The notes: generated by a model from the sequence alone, not told the origin. Shown: positions 1,115 to 41,907, counted from the stretch's first letter. The stretch is DNA of 64,000 bases from Candidatus Nanosyncoccus sp. (GCA_045646085.1 JAZRJZ010000006.1:17164-81163), one strand, 5' to 3'. A program made the numbers and translations.

Positions 1115-1477
1115 ATGAAAAGCTTAAAATCTGATTTCCAAAAGATATATCAAAACGAGCGGGGTATTTTAATCGTCATGATTCTTAATTTTGTCCTCTC
1201 AATTGTATTGATGATTTTTTCAATCATTAGCCTCAATCCAGAGAGCGCTGTAGTGAAAGTTGGATATGGCGATATTGGCGGCTATCGTGATGGTTCTTGG
1301 ATCGACATTCTCGCTTTCCCATTACTTGCCATCATCTTTGGGATTCTCCATAGTTTGCTCGCGGTACGCATCTTTCACAAGCGCGGTAGTGGGATGGCAA
1401 AGTTTTTCCTCATCATCACATCAATTCTAATTCTAGGAACTTTTCTAGTTTTAATTCGTCTACTCGGAGAGCGGTAA
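1115..1477 (+). CDS. Small membrane protein, unknown function
   Basis: The ORF is tightly packed with its neighbours and has 3-4 hydrophobic helices. Confidence 0.5.
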   Translation: MKSLKSDFQKIYQNERGILIVMILNFVLSIVLMIFSIISLNPESAVVKVGYGDIGGYRDGSWIDILAFPLLAIIFGILHSLLAVRIFHKRGSGMAKFFLIITSILILGTFLVLIRLLGER

Positions 1478-6025: not shown

Positions 6026-6225
6026 ATTGTCGTTATTATACCACAAAACCTTCTTTTTAAAACCATAAGCAGTTACAAAACCTTCAAATTTCAAATCTTC
6101 TTCACCCCTGTTTAAATTTTGCAATTTTGAAAGATATGAAACAATTGTGTCATATCTTTTAAAATCAAAAATTTATTTTTCAAATAATCTGCTAGAATAA
6201 CTTCAACGGAGGAGAAAGGAAGAAA

Positions 6226-6894
6226 ATGTTAAAAATAGTGGTTTTTGATTGCGGATATGGTGGAGAATTTTTTGCAGACAAATTAAAAGAGGATTTACCA
6301 ATAATCGAAATAATTCGCGTAATTGATTGGCGTAATGCCGACAAATATCTAAAGAGCCCAAAACTAGCTAGGAAATATGCCACGGAGGCACTTCGCCCCT
6401 ATCTCGGCAGAGTAGATTTGATCGTCCTAGCAAATCATTTACTAGGGATTACCAGCCTCAAATATTTTTGTCGCAAATATAAGAATCAAAAATTCCTGGG
6501 TTTTAGTTTAAAACAACCAGACTCATTCATAAAACATGATGTTTTAATTCTAACCACTCAAGCCATCACAAAGACCAAGAGTTACTATAATTATCTTTTT
6601 CAGCTCAAAAGAAAAACTAAGACCCTCTCTCTAGATTCTTGGCCGCTCAAAATCGATGACGGGGAATTAACTAGAGAGGAAATCCGCACCACCATTCTAA
6701 GCCCACTTCTAAAAGAAGACTTTTGTCCAAAAGAAATCGTGCTAGCCTGTTCTCAATTCAATGATATCAAGCCAGACCTCAAAGCTATTTTCGGGCAAAC
6801 CATCAAAATATATGATTGTTATGATGATACAATCCGAACCATTTGTAAAACTCTAAAGATTCGAGGCGGCACCGGTAAAAAGTCCAAACTATGA
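6226..6894 (+). CDS. Divergent Asp/Glu-racemase-like (MurI-like) protein
   Basis: N-terminus IVVFDCGYGGEFF resembles MurI VFDSGVGG. The first catalytic-Cys block reads LIVLANH (no Cys) and the second reads VLACSQF. Confidence 0.35.
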   Translation: MLKIVVFDCGYGGEFFADKLKEDLPIIEIIRVIDWRNADKYLKSPKLARKYATEALRPYLGRVDLIVLANHLLGITSLKYFCRKYKNQKFLGFSLKQPDSFIKHDVLILTTQAITKTKSYYNYLFQLKRKTKTLSLDSWPLKIDDGELTREEIRTTILSPLLKEDFCPKEIVLACSQFNDIKPDLKAIFGQTIKIYDCYDDTIRTICKTLKIRGGTGKKSKL

Positions 6895-26777: not shown

Positions 26778-28306
<1,529 letters not shown>

Positions 28307-28471
28307 CTTGAGAAGGAATTGATGCTTATGAATCCGTGAGGACACATAATGCTAGGTCGGTTACGGTTGTGTTAAGTAAGCTTATAACACAACAACTCTG
28401 GTTTACCAGACGTAACACTAAGCTTTACACAAAACTACGAAGATAATTGCACAACTAAGTTGTTAAACACT

Positions 28472-28498
28472 AATCCGCCCCAAAAAGGCGGATTTTTA
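28472..28498 (+). terminator. Intrinsic terminator directly after the 16S processing stem
   Basis: AATCCGCC-CCAAAAA-GGCGGATT-TTT. Confidence 0.8.
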
Positions 28499-28527
28499 TC
28501 CTCAAATGATTATGGTACAATAAAACC

Positions 28528-29589
28528 ATGGAAAATCACAATTCATCTCCATTCAAAAACGAAAACAGTTCACCCGTAGATCATGATTTAGACAAAGGCT
28601 TCGGAGAAAAGGCAGAAGCACCCAGCAAAGTATTTTTAGGAAAAACGAAGGATGGCGCAGAGGTTTACGACAGAATAGACAGCCATTTTCACAGCGAAGG
28701 AGGATTAACGCCTGAGCTCTTGGCGGAGGCCATCGGCACTATAAACTCCAAAGGCAGACCATTCATTAAAGAAAAAATAGACTTCGATCACATCATCGGT
28801 GCTCAAACTTGTGTAGAAACTGGGCCAGAAGACGAAATCGTGATGGTTTATCGCAAGGGAAGAAGCGGCCAAACCCCAATGGTAAAAAATCGAGACACAG
28901 AACCGTGTAATTCGATTATAACCATACTCAGAAAAGACTTTTCAGTTCGCGATAAGGACGCTTATGAGATGGCGACCAGCTATATAGGGAGTGACTCCCC
29001 AAGAGAACCTTGGGATCCTAGCATTAGCACAGACAAAGAGCTTCAACAAAGTACAGATTTTTGGAATTCCCACGCTTTGCTTTATGATGATAGCTTAATC
29101 GATTGGGAAAGGACAAAAGCCTTTGAATTTATGTCCGAGCCTACTAAAAGGGCAGAACTTATTCGGCAAAAAACAATCTATGCTGGACTCTTTGTCGATC
29201 CAGTAGATTTATATCAAAAACAGCCATCAACCCTAGAGAAAAGAATCAAAAACCCGCATGTCACCACAGCATTCAAACCAGGCCTCGATCAGCTTCATCT
29301 CGAACAAATCGGGAGCGTCGCCAGAATATTTGCAATTGGTTATGGCAACGATGGAGAAAATGAAGGCTTACTAGTCAGGATTGAAGCGGATGACCCAGAA
29401 ATTCAAGCGGTGTGCGATAATCTAGAAACTCCCCATATCACTCTATCGATTAGCAAAAAAGGACAAGCTGTAAATACGGCGTTTCTCGATTTTGCGCCTC
29501 TTGAGACCCCATTTGAAATAACAGGATACTACGGGTTATTCTCTCAAGGAAAACCCAGAACTAATCCAGCAGAGCTATCAAATAGTTGA
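28528..29589 (+). CDS. Hypothetical protein with a C-terminal 2H-phosphoesterase-like domain (two H-x-T-x motifs)
   Basis: HVTTAF and HITLSI lie ~58 aa apart in the C-terminal third. The N-terminal ~200 aa are unrecognised. Confidence 0.4.
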   Translation: MENHNSSPFKNENSSPVDHDLDKGFGEKAEAPSKVFLGKTKDGAEVYDRIDSHFHSEGGLTPELLAEAIGTINSKGRPFIKEKIDFDHIIGAQTCVETGPEDEIVMVYRKGRSGQTPMVKNRDTEPCNSIITILRKDFSVRDKDAYEMATSYIGSDSPREPWDPSISTDKELQQSTDFWNSHALLYDDSLIDWERTKAFEFMSEPTKRAELIRQKTIYAGLFVDPVDLYQKQPSTLEKRIKNPHVTTAFKPGLDQLHLEQIGSVARIFAIGYGNDGENEGLLVRIEADDPEIQAVCDNLETPHITLSISKKGQAVNTAFLDFAPLETPFEITGYYGLFSQGKPRTNPAELSNS

Positions 29590-29651
29590 ACTAATTTCGA
29601 CAATTATTCCATTCTTTACCACTATAATTGGCAAGAATTGAAACAACCCAA

Positions 29652-29680
29652 TTGACAAAAACACATTTTAGTGTTATTAT
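29652..29680 (+). promoter_or_regulatory. Promoter TTGACAAAA-...-TATTAT for kinase 1
   Basis: 17-nt spacer. It belongs to the repeated promoter cassette (TTTCGACAA lies 57 nt upstream). Confidence 0.55.
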
Positions 29681-29737
29681 AGCATTATCGCTCAACGGGT
29701 TGAACATTTTCAAGCAATTAGGAGGAGGTGTTATTGC

Positions 29738-30193
29738 GTGGCCAAATTTATTGCGATGGTTGGCATTGCCGGTTCTGGCAAGTCAACGATAGTGGCCAAG
29801 TTGGCAAAAGAGTATGAAGCTGTCGTATGTAGTTCCGATGCTATTCGCGGGGAATTGTATGGCGATGAGTCCATCCAAGGAGACTTTCAGTATGTTTATA
29901 AGCTTATGGAAGAACGTGCTAAGGAGGCTCTCGAGGCAGGACGTAACGTCATTTACGACGCCACCAACGTCACAGCCTGGCGACGCCGTCAAATACTAGC
30001 TTGGCTTCCTCAGGGAGTTGAAAAGGAGTGCGTTTGGGTCAATGTGCCCATTGAAAAGGCACTTCAAAACAATCTGAAGCGAGATCGTCACGTTCCCGAA
30101 TGGGTAGTTCGTCAGCATGCAAAACAGCTAGAGCCGCCCACTTTGACGGAAGGATGGAATCATATTCGCGTTGTCGAATGGCCTCAACACTAA
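29738..30193 (+). CDS. P-loop polynucleotide-kinase-like protein (Pnkp/T4 Pnk kinase-domain type, AAA_33-like), paralog 1
   Basis: GIAGSGKST Walker A, SSDAIRGELYGD, YDATN, RDRHVPEWVV. GTG start behind AGGAGGAGG. Confidence 0.6.
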   Translation: MAKFIAMVGIAGSGKSTIVAKLAKEYEAVVCSSDAIRGELYGDESIQGDFQYVYKLMEERAKEALEAGRNVIYDATNVTAWRRRQILAWLPQGVEKECVWVNVPIEKALQNNLKRDRHVPEWVVRQHAKQLEPPTLTEGWNHIRVVEWPQH

Positions 30194-30219
30194 AGGCGGA
30201 CTAATTAGTCCGCCTTTTT
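30192..30219. terminator. Bidirectional terminator AAAGGCGGACT-AATT-AGTCCGCCTTTTT
   Basis: The stem is almost identical to the terminator at 32162-32189. Confidence 0.8.
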
Positions 30220-30996
30220 ACTATTTTTTTGTTTCAATTCCGTTTGATCAGTTGCTTTACGAATGTATTTTCTAGCAAATAAGAAAAATTGACGCATCGC
30301 ATCAGCTATCTCCGGAGACTCTATCAGCGTAGACATTCCGTCCTTTCCGTAGTTAATAAAGGCTACATTATCTCCAAAAATATCAATTTCCACCGGAGAA
30401 TCATACTCAGAACCAGGCAAAACCGTTCGATCAAGTAATACCTTTTTCGCTGTCTTACTATCTAGATTTACAAAATCATGAGAGGTAATATTATTAGCTT
30501 CAATTTTGGCCGCAACGCGTCGTTTTTTAAAATCTTCAAGCGCCTCGTTATCCGCCATTTCATCAAACTTACTTCTTACAAAATAAAAAGTTCGTCCAGT
30601 ATCCACAATTTTGTCATAGATCATCTTCACCCCCTCCTGCCCATAAAAAGTCGCTACGCCTGGCTCATGTTGACGTTCATTATAATAGTTAATAATCGAG
30701 GGAAGATTACTCTCTAGATTCTTCGCCTGTCTCGCTACAACACGCAGGCGCTTCTCGGCAATGGTTTCAAGTGCAGAAGGATGCTTTGGTACGTAAGCGG
30801 CGATTTTACCTCTGTCTTTCTGGGCAATCAGACCAATTTTCTCTAACTTTTCCGCTGCGGAATAAACCGTAGTTCGATTTTCTCCGATACCATTAGCAAT
30901 TTCAGTAGGGGTGCTTTGCCCGTTTTCTACTAGAAATAAATAGATGTTTGCTTGCATTTCCGACAAGCCAATTTGAGTTAAAATACTTTTGTCCAT
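30205..30996 (-). CDS. TrmB-family transcriptional regulator
   Basis: N-terminal wHTH: LTQIGLSEMQANIYLFLVENGQSTPTEIANGIGENRTTVYSAAEKLEKIGLI. The start was trimmed to MDKSIL. Confidence 0.6.
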   Translation of the reverse strand: MDKSILTQIGLSEMQANIYLFLVENGQSTPTEIANGIGENRTTVYSAAEKLEKIGLIAQKDRGKIAAYVPKHPSALETIAEKRLRVVARQAKNLESNLPSIINYYNERQHEPGVATFYGQEGVKMIYDKIVDTGRTFYFVRSKFDEMADNEALEDFKKRRVAAKIEANNITSHDFVNLDSKTAKKVLLDRTVLPGSEYDSPVEIDIFGDNVAFINYGKDGMSTLIESPEIADAMRQFFLFARKYIRKATDQTELKQKNSKKAD

Positions 30997-31093
30997 AGAT
31001 CCATTATAGTCCCAAAAATAGGATTTTGTCAATATCATTTCGACAAAATTTCAAATCCCCACCTCTATAAAAAATAAATTTATGTTATTATAG

Positions 31094-31122
31094 TTGACAA
31101 AAATAGAGTTTTTTGCTATACT
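31094..31122 (+). promoter_or_regulatory. Promoter TTGACAAAA-17-TATACT for the large untranslated transcript
   Basis: Read directly. It is divergent from the TrmB-like gene. Confidence 0.65.
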
Positions 31123-31128
31123 TACAAC

Positions 31129-32189
31129 AGTTGCGAAAAGTTGGGAGCTTCGAGCAATCGCATTTTAAAACATTGTTCCAAAATCACTTCACAGTTTTTT
31201 AGACAAAGCTTGAGGTGACATTCCAGCGAAATAAAAGGTTGAAGCGGTATTTCGTTGGAGCGTCACCTTAAGCGGACCGCTTTTGGTGGCGACGTCGCGT
31301 CGTATAATGCTAAACCAGTTGTAGAGGTAAGATTTGACCCTTGCCTTGGCTGGATACACAGAAGGCCGTCTTTGACGGCTAGACACGAGAAAGCTATCAA
31401 AAGCAGAATTGCCTCCGTGTGAGATAGCAAGTATCGAGGGAGTTTAGTAATAAACTCCTATACGATACCCGAAAGGGAATCGTAAAAACTGTGTAGTATG
31501 GACGTTTTGGAGCGAACCGATCGTAAGGTTTGCTTATGTTGTACAGCACACGAGCCTAAGAACGGGACACGGTGACGGCCTCTTGCCTCCAAGTGGAGAC
31601 GAGTAGGAGAGAAGGTGGTGTAGTGAATGGCCGCAAACCATTCATCAAACCGCATGGCGTCGCGCTTCCTGAGCCTCAAAAACTCAGGGATGTTTCCCAA
31701 TGTTCGATCCTGGCCTTCAACACAGAGGTGTTGAGGGGTGCCTCAGGAGCCTGCCGGAGGGCAGGAGGTAAGTGGTACCGGGTGGCAAGCGAGGAAGCCT
31801 CGCCTATGAATATGAAACAGTCCTGGACGTTTTGGCGTCCGGGACGAGATTACCGCAAGGTATCTCTAGCCCCTTGGGCTAGCTCGGCGGACTCCGCCGG
31901 TCATATTCAACTCGGTTCGTGTACTAGGTGCCTTACGAGGCTTCCTCACAAAGGTACACGTGGGCAAGCAAACCCAAAGACAGAGGAGTATCGAGTAGGT
32001 GGTCGGCCAACCATTCGAAAGTGCGAGATCTGTTAGAGGGTGTCCATGGCTCAACAACAACAAAACGTTTTCGTCACCAAACCGTAGGGATACGATAAGG
32101 GACGAAGGAAAACCATTGGAAGTATGGCCCCAAGCCAAAACCTTCCTAGCATTTTACACGTGGCGGACTATCAAGTCCGCCTATTTTTT
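31129..32189 (+). ncRNA. Candidate giant structured ncRNA (~1.06 kb), family unassigned
   Basis: It runs from promoter to terminator and carries no credible ORF. At least 13 perfect local hairpins are present, for example 31468-31477 CCCGAAAGGG, GTGAATGG-CCGCAAA-CCATTCAT, CCTGCC-GGAG-GGCAGG, GTCCTGGACG-TTTTGG-CGTCCGGGAC, CTAGCCC-CTT-GGGCTAG and CGGCGG-ACT-CCGCCG. It is more G+C-rich than its flanks. Confidence 0.6.
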
Positions 32190-32265
32190 ACCATAGATTG
32201 TCGAAGTTATTTCGACAAATTCTCGAAATCTCACCCCTGCAAAAATCACAATCATAACTTTGCAA

Positions 32266-32294
32266 TTGACAAAATACGTCATTTCTGCTATAAT
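32266..32294 (+). promoter_or_regulatory. Promoter TTGACAAAA-17-TATAAT for the DUF1874 gene (structured ~165-nt 5' UTR)
   Basis: Read directly. The inverted repeat TTGTCGAA-N5-TTCGACAA lies 56 nt upstream. Confidence 0.65.
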
Positions 32295-32465
32295 GGTAGC
32301 AACAATCAGCAAATGATTGTGCAGTTTAAAATAGCATTAAGATATCCTGTTGGTTCCTGTGGCTAATTGTGGGTTATTTAGTCTAGCCTACAATCAGCCA
32401 CAGGAGACGTCCTTGGCCGAAATATCTTTTCGGCCGACGGGCCAAAAACAGGAAAGGAGCGCGGT

Positions 32466-32792
32466 ATGAATTACCTCGCCAACGCCTTCAGTTTGCAGAT
32501 GCTTGATGTCGCCACGGAGATTAACGTCTCCATCCGGCCTATCGAGCCGACCGAGGTCCCCTCGGACGCGATCAGCTGCATCGGCCATGCCGATACGGCG
32601 AATGTCGTATCCGACCTCCTCGGCCGGCCGGTAGCGTGCCACCGGGCGAGCATTGCCCTTGAAGAAGACGACGTCTTGTACGTCGCCCAAATCATGGGCG
32701 GGCGACTGCCTGAAGGCGCCACCACCCTACCGGAGGGGTTTAGCCTTCAGTTCCTGGAGGTAGTCCCCTACATCAAAGTCCTCCCGTATTAG
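32466..32792 (+). CDS. DUF1874-family protein (AcrIII-1/Crn2-type cyclic tetra-adenylate ring nuclease family)
   Basis: 108 aa. The N-terminus is YLANAFSLQML, followed by SCIGHADTANVVSDLLG and GGRLPEGATTLPEG, the pattern I associate with SIRV1 gp29, STIV B116 and ICEBs1 YddF. RBS GGAAAGGAG. Confidence 0.65.
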   Translation: MNYLANAFSLQMLDVATEINVSIRPIEPTEVPSDAISCIGHADTANVVSDLLGRPVACHRASIALEEDDVLYVAQIMGGRLPEGATTLPEGFSLQFLEVVPYIKVLPY

Positions 32793-32998
32793 GAGGCGCG
32801 ATTGCCCTTCTGGGGCGGAAAGGGGCGGCATATGCTCCGTAGTATCTTCCCAGGGGTCGACCTGGGTTACCAAAACGACACCAAACTCTCTAGGCCCCGG
32901 GGAGAACATATTTAAGGGGTCTGCCGGAAAAACCGGCAAATGGGGGTAGTGTACTCCCGCCCCCTAGAGGGGCAACTAGAGGCGAAAGCCTAGTTGTA

Positions 32999-33085
32999 GC
33001 GCAGTTTTGAGTCTGCGCTCGCCCAGCTAAAGGGTGCACAAGTTAAAACTCAACCTCCAGGGCGGGCTCTCTGCTCGCCCTCTTT
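32999..33085 (+). other. 3'-UTR structured motif copy A: hairpin, mini-hairpin, loop-complementary segment (pseudoknot), terminator-like hairpin
   Basis: GCGCAG-TTTTGAGT-CTGCGC ... CCC-AGCTAAA-GGG ... ACTCAA ... GGGCG-N11-CGCCC-TCTTTCC. Confidence 0.5.
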
Positions 33086-33188
33086 CCATATTTGAAGCTA
33101 GATAATTGCGAACCACTTCGTTCTCAGCTATCTCGTTTCAAACGAAACGGGAGAATGTTTACAATTGGGAAAGAAAGGAGGCCACATT

Positions 33189-33890
33189 ATGGCCACCTCC
33201 ATCAACAACCAAGGCTCCACCACGACCTTGCAGATGGGCGACTTGATCGTTCTGTCGTTGCAGGATGATTACGTTTGGGAAAACGAGCTCATGACGCGCT
33301 CTTTTCCATTCAAACTGCAAGATGCGGCCGGAATGCGACCGGGGGATGTTTTTGCCCCTCGCGCTGGCATCGTCGCTGGCCTAACCTCCTATGAGGGAAT
33401 AGAGACTCTGGTTTACCAGAGCTTCCACTGCGGGCGGTATGCTCCCGCCGGGATGGAGGTTGTCCTTTGCCTAGAGGATAGTCTCTTCTCGGTTCAGCGC
33501 TATTCGCCATGGAGTGGGCACTTCGGCCTTCCTAAGCGAATGGACTCAAGGCAGTTTAGCTTCGACTCCTCCTTCTTCTATGGGGAAGTTTCCCCTAGGA
33601 AAAGGTTGGGCGATGTCTTAGCCGATAACCCCCCTGTCGTCTTAGCTCGCATCAAAGAGGAAGCTCGTCAACAGGCGAGATGTAACTCCTTACAAAGCTA
33701 TGGTGGCAAGGGGGCAGAAGACATCAAATTCCCGCCCGACGCTCTGCTACTCGATTTGTATCGAGCGGCAAGAGTTATGGGGCACAGGGAAGTCTATGTC
33801 CCAACCTTCTACACTCTCCGCTCATGCATTTTAGAGCGGGACGGGGAAAGAAGGAGAATTGCGGCTAGGGTCTCTCTAGAGAATTTCTAG
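33189..33890 (+). CDS. Hypothetical protein (G+C-rich gene)
   Basis: ATG behind an AAAGGAGG RBS. No recognisable motif. Confidence 0.5.
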   Translation: MATSINNQGSTTTLQMGDLIVLSLQDDYVWENELMTRSFPFKLQDAAGMRPGDVFAPRAGIVAGLTSYEGIETLVYQSFHCGRYAPAGMEVVLCLEDSLFSVQRYSPWSGHFGLPKRMDSRQFSFDSSFFYGEVSPRKRLGDVLADNPPVVLARIKEEARQQARCNSLQSYGGKGAEDIKFPPDALLLDLYRAARVMGHREVYVPTFYTLRSCILERDGERRRIAARVSLENF

Positions 33891-33900
33891 TCGTCCGACT

Positions 33901-33991
33901 CGCGCAGTTCTGGGTCTGCGTAAGCCCCTTTTTAGGGCAAAACAAAACCCAGAAAAATCTTTCTGCCCTCGGCTTTATCCGGGGGCTTTTT
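33901..33991 (+). other. 3'-UTR structured motif copy B (same architecture as 32999-33085), ending in an intrinsic terminator
   Basis: CGCAG-TTCTGGGT-CTGCG ... GCCC-CTTTTTA-GGGC ... ACCCAGAA ... CCCTCGG-CTTTAT-CCGGGGG-CTTTTT. Confidence 0.5.
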
Positions 33992-34058
33992 CATTAGTCA
34001 ATGCCCAACCCATCTTTTTTAGACACACCAAGCCCCATATGCTAGAATAACCATAAGC

Positions 34059-34757
34059 ATGCCAAAAAAGAACAAGTCTAAAACAACTAAAATTAAGTTC
34101 AATCTACTCGATTGGTTGTGTTTCGCCATCAGCGCAGTAGTATCTCTTATAATTATTCTTTTTTACCACGAAAACCCTCCTTTTTACACCTTCATGGGTA
34201 TCGTAGCTTTAAATACCGGCGTCATCGGTACAATATTAAACATCAAAGGCTACCGCAGTAATTACATTTTCGCCCTCATCAACGCTTTCGCCTGTTTTTA
34301 TACGTCCTGGATTAATCATTTCATCGGTAACGCACTAATGAATCTCGCATTCTACGGTCCGGCCAATTTAGTAGGTTTTCATTCTTGGGGTAAACACAGC
34401 GGAAAAGACAAAAAAGTGATTGCACGCAAATTTACTCTAATCCAAGCTATTGCCGCTGCCTTCATATTCATTATTACTACCATTCTGTTCAATGTTATTC
34501 TAGTCGCCTTAGGCGGTTCACAAACCATCCTAGATAGCGCGACTACAGTTTTAGCAGTGTTTGCTATCATCCTCTCTATTCTTCGTTTTCGCGAGCAATG
34601 GGTCTTTTGGCTTTTGTCCGACATCCTTCAACTAATCATGTGGACTACAACTAACGACCCGGCCGTGCTCGCGCTTAGAATATTCTTCCCACTTAGTTCT
34701 ATTTACGGCTACATCAGCTGGCGAAAACTCATTAAAAAACCAAAAAATAGGCGCTAA
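34059..34757 (+). CDS. pnuC: Nicotinamide riboside transporter PnuC family
   Basis: Polytopic, with a PnuC-like pattern (NIKGYRSNYIFALINA ... W.N ... SWGKH ... WT). Confidence 0.6.
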   Translation: MPKKNKSKTTKIKFNLLDWLCFAISAVVSLIIILFYHENPPFYTFMGIVALNTGVIGTILNIKGYRSNYIFALINAFACFYTSWINHFIGNALMNLAFYGPANLVGFHSWGKHSGKDKKVIARKFTLIQAIAAAFIFIITTILFNVILVALGGSQTILDSATTVLAVFAIILSILRFREQWVFWLLSDILQLIMWTTTNDPAVLALRIFFPLSSIYGYISWRKLIKKPKNRR

Positions 34758-34798
34758 TCATCCTCGTTTATAAGGGAATAATCTGATATAATTGAGAG

Positions 34799-35500
34799 AT
34801 GAGCACAAGTTACGATATTGTTTATTTTGTGAAAGAAGAAAAAACCAACGAAGAGTTGCGTTTTTCGCTTCGCTCTATAGAAAGAAACTTTCCTCATGCA
34901 AGAGTTTGGTTTTATGGCTGTGCTCCAGAGGGAATTAAACCAGATAAGTTAGTTAGATTTGTTCAGGCTAATGAAGAAAAATATTCAAATGTCGGCACGA
35001 TGATGACCATGGCTTTCGCCAACAAAGAAATCAGTGAGAACTTTTGGATTTTTAACGACGATTTCTTTATTATGAAGCCAGTCAAAGATTATAAACCGCA
35101 TTATGATGGAGATTTATACCGGTATATCGTCGCAGTCGAAAACAACAACGACGAGCAAGTCTCGCGGTATACTCACATTCTTCGCTCAACCGCAAAACTA
35201 TTAGAGGAAAATGGATTGCAGACTAGAAATTACGAAACTCATACTCCGCTTCTCGTTAATCGCGAAAAAGCCCTCTTCATCAGAACGCATTTCGGCGCCG
35301 GTATGGCCTTTCGCTCTCTTTACGGCAATTATTGGAAAATCGGCGGCGTCAATCAGCCAGACGTCAAAACAGCCGATCCATCTACCCCCTTCGACAAAGA
35401 TTCCGACGTCTTATCCACCTCAGATATCAATTTTAAAGTCGGTGATATTGGCGAATATATCCGCAACAAATTTCAAAACAAAAGTCGATTCGAAGACTAA
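34799..35500 (+). CDS. Stealth-like (CR2-CR4-like) putative sugar-phosphotransferase
   Basis: EELRFSLRSIERNFP, FNDDFFIMKPV and ETHTP resemble the Stealth conserved regions. Confidence 0.35.
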   Translation: MSTSYDIVYFVKEEKTNEELRFSLRSIERNFPHARVWFYGCAPEGIKPDKLVRFVQANEEKYSNVGTMMTMAFANKEISENFWIFNDDFFIMKPVKDYKPHYDGDLYRYIVAVENNNDEQVSRYTHILRSTAKLLEENGLQTRNYETHTPLLVNREKALFIRTHFGAGMAFRSLYGNYWKIGGVNQPDVKTADPSTPFDKDSDVLSTSDINFKVGDIGEYIRNKFQNKSRFED

Positions 35501-35590
35501 ACCTCTCTCTGATGGTATAATAGTACTATAGCATTCGTATGAAATGTTAGTACTTCAAAGTTTTGCCCCTACAACAGAAAGGAGGCCGTA

Positions 35591-36034
35591 ATGGCTCCTA
35601 GATTTGTCATGATGGTTGGCTTGGCCGGCTCTGGTAAATCTACAGTCGCCAAACGCCTCGCAACCGAAAACGGCGCTCACATAATCAGCTCTGACTCCAT
35701 CAGGAAAGAGCTCTATGGCGACGAAACTATTCAGGGTGACTCTAAGCTCGTATTTCGACTTATGGACGAACGGTGCCTGGCCGCTCTCGCGCAGGGAACA
35801 AGCGTTATTTACGACGCCACCAATGTCTCTGTTCGTTTCCGTGAACAGATACTGGAAAAAATCCCTCCAGAAGTTGAAAAAGAATGCGTGTGGGTAAAAA
35901 CCTCAGTCGATGTAGCGCTAGAGCGCAATCTCAAGCGCGACCGGCAGGTCCCCGAATGGGTCATCATCCGACAAGCAAGTCGGCTTCAGCCGCCTACCTG
36001 GGAAGAAGGCTGGAGCCAAATCCGTGTTGTTTAG
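35591..36034 (+). CDS. P-loop polynucleotide-kinase-like protein, paralog 2
   Basis: GLAGSGKST, SSDSIRKELYGD, YDATN, RDRQVPEWVI. About 60% identical to the 29738 product by hand alignment (about 88 of 147 positions). Confidence 0.6.
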   Translation: MAPRFVMMVGLAGSGKSTVAKRLATENGAHIISSDSIRKELYGDETIQGDSKLVFRLMDERCLAALAQGTSVIYDATNVSVRFREQILEKIPPEVEKECVWVKTSVDVALERNLKRDRQVPEWVIIRQASRLQPPTWEEGWSQIRVV

Positions 36035-36043
36035 TCAAAATAC

Positions 36044-36072
36044 TTGACAAAATGAGGAAAATTTGGTATAAT
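36044..36072 (+). promoter_or_regulatory. Promoter TTGACAAAA-17-TATAAT (with TGG extended -10)
   Basis: Read directly. Confidence 0.6.
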
Positions 36073-36126
36073 ACACTACATAAACCAAAACCCGACGCCC
36101 CTCGGGGGGCAGAAAGGAGGCTTGCG

Positions 36127-36264
36127 ATGAGCAAGACTTCCACCAAAAAGACGGCAACCTCCGACCGTCAGTCCCTCCAGCGCTACGCGCTGAAGCAGGC
36201 AACCGCCTCCCGTAACGGGTGGCGGGTGGAGGCGAGGGGTGACGCCCTAATCCTTCGGCGTTAG
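36127..36264 (+). CDS. Small basic protein (45 aa), G+C-rich
   Basis: ATG 8 nt after GAAAGGAGG. The product is MSKTSTKKTATSDRQSLQRYALKQATASRNGWRVEARGDALILRR. It has its own promoter and terminator. Confidence 0.45.
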   Translation: MSKTSTKKTATSDRQSLQRYALKQATASRNGWRVEARGDALILRR

Positions 36265-36324
36265 CCCCCCAACCACCGGTTAGGGCGAACCGGACCACCA
36301 AAATCGCCCAAACCACTAACCCTA

Positions 36325-36347
36325 CCCCGGCATCTGCCGGGGTTTTT
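36325..36347. terminator. Intrinsic terminator CCCCGGC-ATCT-GCCGGGG-TTTTT
   Basis: Read directly. It lies between the convergent small ORF and mazG. Confidence 0.8.
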
Positions 36348-36358
36348 CTTGTCGTTGT

Positions 36359-36697
36359 TTATCTGTTGTCGCCAGCGCCGTGTAACTTATTGCGCTCCTT
36401 ACGACTAGTTAGTTTCAGGACATTCATCTTTGCAACCTCAGAAAAGGGAACGTCCAAATATCTTGCGATACTCGCCACGTACCAGATTACATCACCTAAC
36501 TCTTTTACTATCTCTTTTTTGTCCTCATCTGTAGCGCGCCCATCCTTATCGCGTAAAACCTTTTTGACTTTATCGGCTGTTTCTCCGGCCTCACCAGCAA
36601 GCCCCAATACTTTCTCTATGAATCCGACCTCTGTCAATTTCCCTGGCCCATACAAATCAAACTCTTGAATTGCCTCTTGATATTCGTCAAAATCCAT
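36359..36697 (-). CDS. MazG-like nucleoside triphosphate pyrophosphohydrolase (single-domain)
   Basis: GLAGEAGETADKVKK...ELGDVIWY is the EExxE/D MazG helix pattern. Confidence 0.7.
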   Translation of the reverse strand: MDFDEYQEAIQEFDLYGPGKLTEVGFIEKVLGLAGEAGETADKVKKVLRDKDGRATDEDKKEIVKELGDVIWYVASIARYLDVPFSEVAKMNVLKLTSRKERNKLHGAGDNR

Positions 36698-36729
36698 CTT
36701 ACCTCCTCTTTATGCTATAATTATATCAC

Positions 36730-37251
36730 ATGGAAGATACGCGCAATTTGATAGATGAGTACAAAGGGCTCAAAAATGAACAAGTTTTTGATGAACTGTC
36801 CAAGTCGCGTACACCTTTAGAAATTGCCATCGAAAACCTTGAACACGATTTTAATATTGGCTCAATTGTCCGCACTGCCAACTCCTTTAATGTGAAAAAA
36901 GTTCACATCATCGGCAAGAAAAAATACAACCGTCGCGGTGCTATGTGTACAGATAAATATTTAGAGATTTTGCATCACCCCACCATTAAAGAGTTTCTCA
37001 AAACTCAGAAGGGCAGGGAATTGGTTGCCATAGAAAACAATCTAGAGCGCGCCAAACCCCTAAAGGATAAATTATTTGAACAAAATACCACCCTTATTTT
37101 TGGTTCCGAAAGAGACGGCATCACAAAAGAATTACTCAAAAAAGCCAAAGATATTAGGTATATCGAAAGCTTTGGCTCTACTCGTTCAGTTAACGTCGGC
37201 GTCGCCGCAGGGATTGCAATGTATGAGTACATCCGCCAAATCATCCTCTAA
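36730..37251 (+). CDS. SpoU/TrmH-family RNA 2'-O-methyltransferase
   Basis: NIGSIVRTANSF, LIFGSERDGI, SVNVGVAAGIAMYE. Confidence 0.8.
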   Translation: MEDTRNLIDEYKGLKNEQVFDELSKSRTPLEIAIENLEHDFNIGSIVRTANSFNVKKVHIIGKKKYNRRGAMCTDKYLEILHHPTIKEFLKTQKGRELVAIENNLERAKPLKDKLFEQNTTLIFGSERDGITKELLKKAKDIRYIESFGSTRSVNVGVAAGIAMYEYIRQIIL

Positions 37252-41588: not shown

Positions 41589-41907
41589 AAACTAATTATA
41601 ACATAAAAGGGAAGCCGGTCCTTTCGGGGCGGGTTCTCAGGTCATACATGTATTTTAAGTAGCCTCGCAGTTTAATCTACTTAAAACTACCTCTATTGTA
41701 TATCACGTGACGCATAATGTCAAGTACTTTTTTCCACAAATTGTTCAAAACTTCGCAAAAAAGTGTTCGGGTTTTTCCACAATTATTACAACATATTTTT
41801 TAGAATTAGCATATTGACAAACGTTAAGCACTATGATATAATGTACTCATACACTCTTAAAGGGTGGTGTTAATTTTTAATTTGGTGGGCAGAATAGGAG
41901 TTCTAGA

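Follow-up and report, generated by a model that had tools for sequence, protein, structure and literature searches.

Is the run of accessory genes between the 16S ribosomal RNA (rRNA) gene and mazG in Candidatus Nanosyncoccus sp. one acquired module, or a looser set of units under common control? The question is raised by a 64-kb stretch of DNA from this organism (hereafter the window, whose coordinates are used throughout), in which a protein with a 2H-phosphoesterase-like C-terminus, two Pnkp-like kinases, a TrmB-like regulator, a structured RNA of ~1.06 kb, a DUF1874 ring nuclease, a 233-aa protein, PnuC, a Stealth-like gene and a 45-aa basic open reading frame (ORF) follow one another. An initial annotation had listed these features and read them as an RNA-centred module derived from a mobile element. 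All of them were found at their places between 16S and mazG, and they were compared with those of related contigs, numbered L004, L009, L050, L058 and so on. The region proved to be the variable part of a conserved neighbourhood (16S ... TrmB-family regulator ... MazG-SpoU-tRNAs) and not one mobile island, and its most solid new element is the RNA. The explanation preferred here, with a probability of about 0.6 as a whole, is that the RNA and the enzymes are payloads of a regulon controlled by the TrmB-family protein.

A large structured RNA in Saccharibacteria

31129..32190, plus strand: structured non-coding RNA of ~1,060 nt, including an intrinsic terminator at 32162-32181

The RNA is preceded by a TG-extended promoter at 31094-31122 (TTGACA-17-TATACT) that matches the consensus at 11 of 12 hexamer positions, and its 3′ end is formed by a GC-rich hairpin and a T-run at 32162-32181; the ~1,060 nt from promoter to terminator contain no credible ORF. 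Folding favours the plus strand (-434 kcal/mol vs. -379 for the minus strand). Among the close strains L004, L005 and L007, the RNA is 98.9% identical, compared with ~96.7% over the enclosing 4-kb block (28300-32320); no change is seen in the first ~335 aligned columns, which include the promoter, and in one hairpin a C-G pair has become U-A by a double change. Diverged homologues were recovered from L009, a Saccharibacteria metagenome-assembled genome (MAG) from the duodenum of dairy cattle, from the Logan assemblies L050, L051 and L052, and from the ENA assembly L058. The four lineages (window, L009, L050 and L058) have pairwise identities of 75-81%, and the operator, promoter, 5′ end and terminator are kept in all four.

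A consensus fold obtained with RNAalifold from a six-sequence alignment comprises 299 pairs in 46 helices, with standard pairing in 98.0% of all cells. It includes 68 compensatory pairs, compared with 5-13 when the structure was slid by 1-3 columns and 23.6 ± 3.5 in column shuffles, none of 500 of which reached the observed value. Variation is found mostly in peripheral hairpins, some of them deleted or replaced, and blocks of 20-40 nt are invariant. Several 1-nt indels and one of 34 nt disrupt the longest ORF in the RNA (154 aa) when lineages are compared; this ORF had no match in Pfam, PHROG, NCBIfam or PADLOC, and a concatenate of nine pseudo-ORFs of the RNA, used as a protein query, returned nothing. 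The proposal of a ~1.06-kb structured RNA is thus borne out by promoter, terminator, covariation and the broken ORF, and the stretch 31129-32190 is almost certainly a real, structurally constrained RNA.

By sequence comparison the RNA belongs to no described family and represents an unclassified class of 1-kb structured RNAs in Saccharibacteria. No Rfam 15 family was found over 31129-32190, either at gathering thresholds (whole window) or at E ≤ 1 (28300-36800); the models tested included group I and II introns, rRNA, RNase P, tmRNA and Y RNA. Rfam likewise held no family for the RNA leaders, the small unit or the related loci described below. BLAST of 31100-34000 against phages and plasmids gave no match, nor did a search of IMG/VR with two 20-mers from invariant cores of the RNA. 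A metagenome scan with a pseudo-protein alignment of the RNA's reverse-strand ORF, a poor seed, retrieved nothing, and a scan with 18-mers gave five random matches, none homologous to the RNA. Literature searches covering large non-coding RNA (ncRNA), ring nucleases and TrmB in Saccharibacteria or Patescibacteria gave nothing relevant, and no description of this RNA was found.

The G+C content of the RNA (0.50) is no sign of transfer, because it equals that of the genome's own structural RNAs (16S rRNA, 0.52; RNase P, 0.50). Bacterial structured RNAs of more than ~500 nt are very rare, and the maintenance of 1 kb of non-coding sequence in the tiny genomes of Saccharibacteria implies strong selection on it.

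A shared operator-promoter template and its putative regulator

29583..29680, plus strand: operator-promoter module 1, TAGTTGA-N6-TTCGACA (degenerate palindrome) with TTGACA-17-TATTAT, driving kinase 1
30192..30217, unstranded: hairpin terminator at the point where the kinase 1 and TrmB genes converge
30205..31038, minus strand: TrmB-family regulator with a winged helix-turn-helix (HTH), a long helix and a C-terminal alpha/beta domain (Pfam PF01978, 3.5e-12)
31026..31122, plus strand: operator-promoter module 2, TTGTCAA-N6-TTCGACA with TTGACA-17-TATACT, driving the large RNA
32198..32294, plus strand: operator-promoter module 3, TTGTCGA-N6-TTCGACA (perfect palindrome) with TTGACA-17-TATAAT, driving the DUF1874 cassette

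The promoter of the RNA belongs to a template of ~95 bp, in which a palindrome (TTGTCGA-N6-TTCGACA) is followed by a consensus sigma-70 promoter; the palindrome lies 68-69 nt upstream of the -35 hexamer and is centred about -91 from the start. The three modules are the only sites in the window within two mismatches of the operator. Across the window and the related loci, a scan for the template gave 63 matches, some of which are loose or strain duplicates, and ~30 related loci carry one to three copies each, usually with one copy divergent from TrmB. Module 2 is conserved in L009, L050 and L058, and the left half of its palindrome shares bases with the -35 of the TrmB promoter (31032-31003), which runs in the opposite direction. 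An operator placed over the regulator's own -35 is the usual layout of autoregulation.

The regulator, a protein well conserved among Saccharibacteria, probably starts at an internal Met, giving 263 aa as called in relatives, and has 270 homologues, the best 120 of which are 65-79% identical, besides a 97%-identical strain copy. Its AlphaFold2 (AF2) model (predicted local distance difference test, pLDDT, of 67) matched TrmBL2 over its full length (Foldseek, 5bpd, 2.5e-11 over 255 columns) and TrmB (3qph, 2.4e-6), so that Pfam and fold agree on the TrmB-like identity proposed for it. From the distribution of the operator, kinase 1, the RNA and the DUF1874 cassette probably form one TrmB-controlled regulon. 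The only Rfam match in this region, to the enterobacterial small RNA (sRNA) STnc380 at 30183-30326(-), with 31.5 bits against a gathering threshold of 60, was rejected as spurious because the hairpin that gives rise to it is the bidirectional terminator of kinase 1 and TrmB.

In many other Saccharibacteria loci the TrmB-operator promoters are followed by a structured leader RNA of ~270 nt, seen in L010 (9630-9912(-)), L011 (9597-9891(-) and 5993-6270(-)), L013 (three copies), L015, L031, L032, L034, L035 and others. Its motifs run GGTGGGTGAGCrGGGAA .. TTCTTCC..CCGrTrTTA .. TGGGTGGGCACA .. GGGTGGGATA .. ACTCAGTTCG..CGGGCTGAGCCG, and RNAalifold gave 38 pairs, nine of them compensatory, with no Rfam match. 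This leader and the 1-kb RNA were mutually exclusive in the loci seen. The possibility that the RNA is an enlarged version of the leader was rejected, as nhmmer showed no similarity between them.

Co-occurrence of the RNA with its neighbours

Presence across the four RNA lineages was as follows:
Operator, promoter and terminator, with a TrmB gene within 2 kb: 4/4 lineages
2H-type protein: 2/4 lineages (window and L050)
AAA_33 kinase: 2/4 lineages (window and L058)
DUF1874 as the next unit: 2/4 lineages (window and L050)

In L050 the order 2H-type protein, TrmB, RNA and DUF1874 is the same as in the window, and the proteins are 64-79% identical. The L058 lineage has an AAA_33 kinase directly after the RNA, and L009 has the RNA with a Csx3-domain protein in place of 2H-type protein, kinase and DUF1874. 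Conversely, L011 and L035 have DUF1874 cassettes but no RNA, L057 has a 2H-type protein but no RNA, and ~30 TrmB loci have no RNA, many of them carrying the ~270-nt leader instead. The RNA is probably an optional payload of the locus and not a housekeeping element, being present in four related lineages and absent from ~30 other TrmB loci. Its association with the enzymes is recurrent but loose, and looks like a shared regulon and neighbourhood as opposed to an obligate module.

An exchangeable cassette with a ring nuclease homologue

32297..32465, plus strand: cassette leader with a 5′ hairpin CAATCA..TGATTG, a hairpin CCTGTGGCT..AGCCACAGG and a GGAGACGTCC..CGGCCGACGGGCCA element
32466..32792, plus strand: DUF1874/AcrIII-1 (Crn2)-type ring nuclease homologue (Pfam STIV_B116-like PF08960, 2.7e-7; G+C at third codon positions, GC3, 0.77)
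32793..33188, plus strand: structured spacer of 396 nt with a hairpin/pseudoknot element at ~33000-33060 (z = -5.6 vs. shuffles)
33189..33890, plus strand: 233-aa ORFan, the second cassette gene (GC3 0.62)
33903..33986, plus strand: second hairpin/pseudoknot element (GCGCAG-loop-CTGCG ... AAAA + loop complement) and the cassette terminator at 33965-33986

The unit that follows the RNA in the window is a cassette of two genes behind a leader, whose GGAGACGTCC..CGGCCGACGGGCCA element is common to the window, L004 and L050. The first product matched PF08960 with 31.1 bits, above the cut-off of 26, and aligned with structures of SIRV1 gp29 (PDB 2x4i, 1.5e-8; 6scf, 7.3e-7), which upholds its assignment to DUF1874. 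In the alignment its ...CIGHADTA... and ...GGRLPEG... match the IGH and RLEEG of 2x4i, and the IGH histidine, which is alanine in 6scf, is kept. With this histidine and the RLxEG glutamate, which we take to be the catalytic residues, the protein is plausibly an active ring nuclease. The DUF1874 family comprises ring nucleases of bacterial hosts (Crn2) and the viral AcrIII-1. The second gene encodes the 233-aa protein, whose sole match among 5.8 billion proteins was itself; exact look-ups of both products led to no other contig.

The window is homologous to L004 and L007 up to 32320, a little downstream of the cassette promoter, and again from 33944, shortly before the terminator. In these strains, where the RNA is 99% identical, a different G+C-rich cassette encodes a 110-aa "LNLTPH" protein (phrog_30542) and a 176-aa ORFan, and the homologous leader and 3′ element are kept. 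GC3 values of 0.77 for DUF1874, 0.62 for the ORFan and 0.78 for the 45-aa ORF further downstream contrast with 0.42 ± 0.06 for 37 long ORFs of the window. The DUF1874 and ORFan cassette is therefore compositionally foreign and strain-swappable; its DNA had no match in the phage and plasmid collections. The two G+C-rich stretches had been read as a hint of foreign origin; the enrichment is real but has two components, the foreign composition of the cassette genes and, in the RNA, a G+C content that is that of structural RNAs.

Cassette ORFs are followed by a 3′ hairpin (GCGCAG-loop-CTGCGC) and, 10-30 nt downstream, by the complement of its loop preceded by AAAA. Sites are 33000-33060 and 33903-33955 in the window, 5127-5175 in L004, 5378-5425 in L007, 7101-7119(-) in L010 and 1332-1352(-) in L028. 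Loop and complement covary (the six instances have five different loop sequences), an observation suggestive of an H-type pseudoknot that marks cassette 3′ ends; the element may be a signal for RNA stability, termination or recombination.

Further G+C-rich payloads lie behind the same promoter template in L031 (3302-4030(-), 4683-5099(-) and 8090-9577(-)) and show the breadth of the cassette repertoire: a 242-aa ORF that resembles a DEDD exonuclease by eye and has no PHROG match, a 138-aa relative of the LNLTPH family, and an ORF of ~450 aa after a leader of ~450 nt.

A 2H-type protein and two kinases

28528..29589, plus strand: 353-aa two-domain protein with an N-domain (phrog_23674) and a C-terminal 2H-phosphoesterase-like domain
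29738..30193, plus strand: polynucleotide kinase (PNK)-like P-loop kinase 1 (AAA_33, 5.6e-27)
35591..36034, plus strand: PNK-like P-loop kinase 2 (AAA_33, 1.2e-25)

Over its whole length the 353-aa protein had no Pfam match. It has 1245 homologues, and each of its domains is common as a stand-alone protein. In the C-terminal domain (residues ~205-345), 29 homologues show little or no variation in two HxT motifs, PHVT and PHITLS, and Pfam searches of these returned LigT_PEase in 8 (best 0.0011), 2_5_RNA_ligase2 in 3 and 2H-SAK in 2, all below cut-offs. The 2H-phosphoesterase-like character proposed for this C-terminus is therefore kept on the basis of its motifs and weak profiles, with profile matches that stay sub-threshold.

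The two kinases (147-151 aa) are 58-59% identical by tblastn. Besides AAA_33, they matched the kinase segment of the Pnkp model TIGR04075 (3e-14), of which they span positions 10-138 of 851 and stay far below its cut-off, and phrog_505, "polynucleotide kinase" (1e-20); these profiles agree with their description as Pnkp-like. Searches with Pfam, PHROG and NCBIfam profiles detected no ligase domain in any protein of the island, in line with the earlier remark that no ligase was evident, and Pfam showed no phosphatase domain either. Natural fusions elsewhere join the N-domain with the 2H-like domain and AAA_33 (P0146) or with AAA_33 (P0206), an arrangement that supports kinase 1 and the 353-aa protein as functional partners and backs the pairing of kinase and 2H domain that had been suggested. 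Other fusions join the N-domain to HD (P0203 and P0209) or to a weak Csx3 match (P0258), and these partners place the 353-aa family among enzymes acting on phosphodiester or cyclic-phosphate ends.

A Csx3 protein of 413-448 aa, which combines an N-terminal P-loop with a Cas_csx3 domain at the C-terminus (Pfam, 8e-8), lies convergent with TrmB in several relatives (L009, 3026-4336(-); L039, 10761-12002(-); L041, 10779-12110(-); L054, 5106-6452(-)) and holds the position that kinase 1 and the 353-aa protein occupy here. Csx3 is another ring-nuclease-type domain. A relationship of this protein to the 353-aa N-domain or to kinase 1 was tested, and they are unrelated.

Chromosomal setting

26778-28306: complete bacterial 16S rRNA gene
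34059..34757, plus strand: PnuC-type transporter of nicotinamide riboside/nicotinamide mononucleotide (Pfam, 1.2e-31)
34799..35500, plus strand: phrog_7999 protein ("Stealth-like"; phrog_7999 at 2e-43)
36044..36343, plus strand: small G+C-rich unit with a consensus promoter lacking an operator, the 45-aa ORF and a terminator at 36324-36343
36127-36264, plus strand: basic 45-aa ORF within this promoter-to-terminator unit (GC3 0.78)
36359..36697, minus strand: MazG-type nucleoside triphosphate pyrophosphohydrolase, backbone (Pfam, 1.1e-10)
36730..37251, plus strand: SpoU-family RNA methyltransferase, backbone (Pfam, 1.9e-27)

Synteny was examined in ~30 related Saccharibacteria loci from rumen and gut, where 16S, MazG, SpoU, a deacetylase and tRNA genes flank the region; because they are syntenic beside 16S in these loci, TrmB, MazG and SpoU are considered chromosomal backbone. 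What varies between loci is the payload behind each template copy. No integrase, transposase, relaxase or other mobility domain was found among the island proteins in Pfam, PHROG and NCBIfam profile searches, and the repeats detected in the window are the promoter modules and not flanking att sites or direct repeats.

The 23S and 5S genes were not found anywhere in the 64-kb window, and the rRNA genes are therefore unlinked. In many related MAGs, contigs break at the 16S gene. Pfam confirmed PnuC as well as MazG and SpoU. The Stealth-like gene was reassigned: of Stealth_CR1-CR4, Stealth_CR2 alone was matched in Pfam, with 26.9 bits against a cutoff of 39.4, but the protein is a clear member of phrog_7999. 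Strain L007 lacks this gene (6213-6585), with short remnants aligning to 34799-35500, and the gene is thus dispensable and recently lost or gained.

The small unit may encode a protein, an sRNA or both; the fold of 36079-36345 has z = -5.6 vs. shuffles, and L009 carries a different G+C-rich ORF behind a similar promoter at the same position. A second conserved promoter and leader (..GGTGGGCAGAAnGGAG..) at 41814-41842 precedes a gene whose product starts MAGTKAGG or MSGTKAGG, and this leader may be a conserved element of the 5′ untranslated region. Promoter and leader of this type were also seen in L012, L018, L019, L021, L029, L030, L034 and L041, and the product has a faint KGG match in Pfam in L041 and L053. 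In L057 (7601-14734), small Pfam-less genes in a row and a large serine recombinase lie just past SpoU and may be an integrated element in the equivalent chromosomal neighbourhood; at that locus, a 70%-identical homologue of the 353-aa protein stands in an operon after a TrmB paralogue.

A proposed regulon with exchangeable payloads

In the proposed model, a TrmB dimer would bind the operators, autoregulate its own gene and co-regulate the three units in response to a ligand, and the payloads would act on RNA or oligonucleotide ends and signals. Published work on the DUF1874 family describes the conversion of cyclic oligoadenylate to linear products of the A2>p type, with 5′-OH and 2′,3′-cyclic phosphate ends. 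The ring nuclease would accordingly be expected to cut cyclic oligoadenylate to such products, the 2H domain could open their 2′,3′-cyclic phosphates, and a PNK-like kinase could phosphorylate the 5′-OH ends. The large RNA may take part in this response in trans, as scaffold, decoy or catalyst and in the form of a stably folded RNA or ribonucleoprotein, in a role that would resemble that of the large ornate RNAs riding with conflict-related genes. Our best guess is thus a trans-acting RNA of a TrmB-controlled conflict or RNA-processing regulon, and any specific role assigned to the RNA is doubtful.

Several points weigh against this reading. The 2H assignment, based on motifs and sub-threshold profiles, is likely and not proven; PDB profile searches with both domains of the 353-aa protein gave chance-level matches and no solved 2H structure, and its single-sequence AF2 model (pLDDT 33) is unusable. 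The AAA_33 family also contains small-molecule kinases. The coupling of RNA and enzymes is weak, because the enzyme neighbours differ between lineages, each being present in two of four and none in L009. The lineages number just four, and all were reached by walking from homologues of TrmB or the 353-aa protein, so that the linkage to TrmB may be overestimated. Finally, no CRISPR (clustered regularly interspaced short palindromic repeats) array or cyclic-oligonucleotide system was seen in the 64-kb window, where Cas genes and those of cyclic-oligonucleotide-based antiphage signalling systems (CBASS) were not searched for.

A bolder version of the regulon reading, which we regard as improbable, is that the RNA founds a new large ornate class. 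Epibiotic bacteria of the Candidate Phyla Radiation (CPR) would use it as an "RNA payload" that can be exchanged at a conflict locus under TrmB control, and it would work, as a ribozyme, multimeric scaffold or decoy, on or with the RNA and oligonucleotide ends that the ring nuclease, 2H-type enzyme and kinase, regulated together with it, would process. If true, this would be an unrecognised regulated RNA-plus-enzyme system that interferes with, or protects from, the nucleic-acid-based immunity of host bacterium or phage. The conserved template, which drives hypervariable foreign cassettes beside 16S in many Saccharibacteria of rumen and gut, is a place to look for factors that epibionts use in conflict with host or phage.

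Alternative explanations

The alternative that survives best, itself unlikely, is that the enzymes serve the cell's own nucleotide economy or its own cyclic-oligoadenylate immunity, as a Crn2-like off-switch or in oligonucleotide salvage by an auxotrophic epibiont, and not counter-defence, the RNA being unrelated cargo that shares the regulator. Its chromosomal setting beside MazG and the PnuC transporter, the Csx3-domain proteins at the equivalent TrmB-adjacent position in relatives, and the host role of bacterial DUF1874 proteins (Crn2) would fit such a function. The cassette, however, is foreign in composition and swapped between near-identical strains, a pattern that typifies conflict genes more than metabolic ones, and the window has no CRISPR array, with the limit on Cas and CBASS genes given above.

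Somewhat less probable is the discrete, obligate module of the initial annotation, derived from a mobile element, in which kinase and 2H protein, RNA and ring nuclease would have been acquired together from high-GC Actinobacteria or their phages for RNA repair or counter-defence. Part of that proposal stands: 2H protein, TrmB, RNA and DUF1874 share their order in two diverged lineages (window and L050), a kinase adjoins the RNA in L058, and one operator-promoter module is common to the units; PHROG matches for the N-domain, DUF1874, the kinases and the Stealth-like gene, and the foreign GC3 of the cassette, also agree with it. The set is, however, neither discrete nor obligate, given an L009 RNA without any of the three enzymes, the swapping out of DUF1874 in L004 and L007 despite a 99%-identical RNA, and the separate occurrence of DUF1874 (L011, L035) and of a 2H-type protein (L057) without the RNA. 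The mobile-element origin itself is made less likely by the lack of mobility genes in the island, by the conserved TrmB, MazG and SpoU backbone, by the failure to find the RNA in the phage, plasmid and viral (IMG/VR) collections, and by its G+C content, which equals that of the genome's own 16S rRNA and RNase P.

There is little to recommend the view that the RNA acts in cis as a very long leader for the cassette behind it, as an enlarged counterpart of the ~270-nt leader that takes this place in other Saccharibacteria. A strong intrinsic terminator closes the RNA in all four lineages. In three of them (the window lineage, L009 and L050) the unit that follows has a complete operator and promoter of its own, placed after the RNA; in L058 the promoter there lacks the operator. 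The next unit, moreover, varies between DUF1874, the LNLTPH protein, an 88-aa ORF and a kinase. What speaks for a leader is that the RNA is co-oriented with the cassette and directly upstream of it in the window and L050, and that loci with the 270-nt leader lack the RNA and vice versa, so that the two would occupy equivalent slots; they share, however, no sequence similarity.

That 31.1-32.2 kb is a protein-coding gene (the 154-aa GTG ORF at 31572-32036, which gene callers annotated on contig L004) or a decayed pseudogene is scarcely tenable against the empty profile and concatenated pseudo-ORF searches, the 1-nt and 34-nt indels that break the ORF between lineages, the compensatory helix substitutions (68 pairs), and conservation between strains above that of the flanking coding genes.

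Comparison with known systems

The regulator shares with archaeal TrmB and TrmBL2 its full-length fold (Foldseek, 2.5e-11) and a palindromic operator. It is, however, bacterial and without a Pfam match to the sugar-binding TrmB_C, and its predicted targets are accessory cassettes in place of sugar metabolism. The arrangement of small, foreign, strain-variable genes behind a strong conserved promoter, next to an HTH protein, recalls anti-CRISPR and other anti-defence loci with a dedicated regulator (acr-aca) and integron-like cassette arrays, as does replacement between conserved 5′ and 3′ non-coding elements. Here, however, the regulator is a conserved chromosomal TrmB-family protein and not Aca, integrase and attC are absent, the conserved 3′ element has the form of an RNA-like hairpin/pseudoknot, and a 1-kb RNA is among the payloads. 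The DUF1874 protein resembles AcrIII-1 and Crn2 in its STIV_B116-like match, its homology to SIRV1 gp29 and the kept IGH and RLxEG, whereas its place is a CPR chromosome, in a swappable cassette under a TrmB operator, in a window without a CRISPR array.

The kinase and cyclic phosphodiesterase (CPDase) domains of the tRNA ligase Trl1, and bacterial Pnkp/Hen1, offer the closest likeness for the enzymes, with a PNK-like P-loop and a 2H-type domain (two HxT motifs) that are fused in P0146. The present locus differs in the absence of a ligase, phosphatase module or Hen1, in a short (~135 aa), sub-threshold 2H domain, and in an extra N-domain that elsewhere is fused to HD and Csx3 domains. The rsr-Y RNA-rtcBA operons (Ro60, Y-RNA-like ncRNAs, RtcB, RtcR) likewise combine a structured ncRNA with enzymes that process RNA ends, under the control of a regulator of their own. 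The locus described here, however, has no Ro60, RtcB, RtcA or ligase, its RNA is ~10 times larger and without a Y-RNA or tRNA-like Rfam match, and its regulator is of the TrmB type and not a sigma-54 activator.

The RNA is closest in kind to OLE, GOLLD and ROOL. With these, and with raiA and HEARO, it shares its length, which is at the upper end of their sizes or beyond, the many helices, long invariant junction or single-stranded blocks and variable peripheral hairpins, as well as its own promoter and terminator and a patchy distribution; with ROOL it also shares rumen-type communities and a site among accessory conflict-type genes. It differs in matching none of the Rfam models of these five classes even at E < 1, and in its occurrence in Saccharibacteria (CPR), outside a prophage, away from tRNA genes and under a TrmB-type operator. 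New biochemistry has come out of every well-supported large class of RNA (rRNAs, RNase P, group II introns, OLE, GOLLD, ROOL), and the present one offers a testable handle: one operator, one TrmB regulator and a set of co-regulated enzymes.

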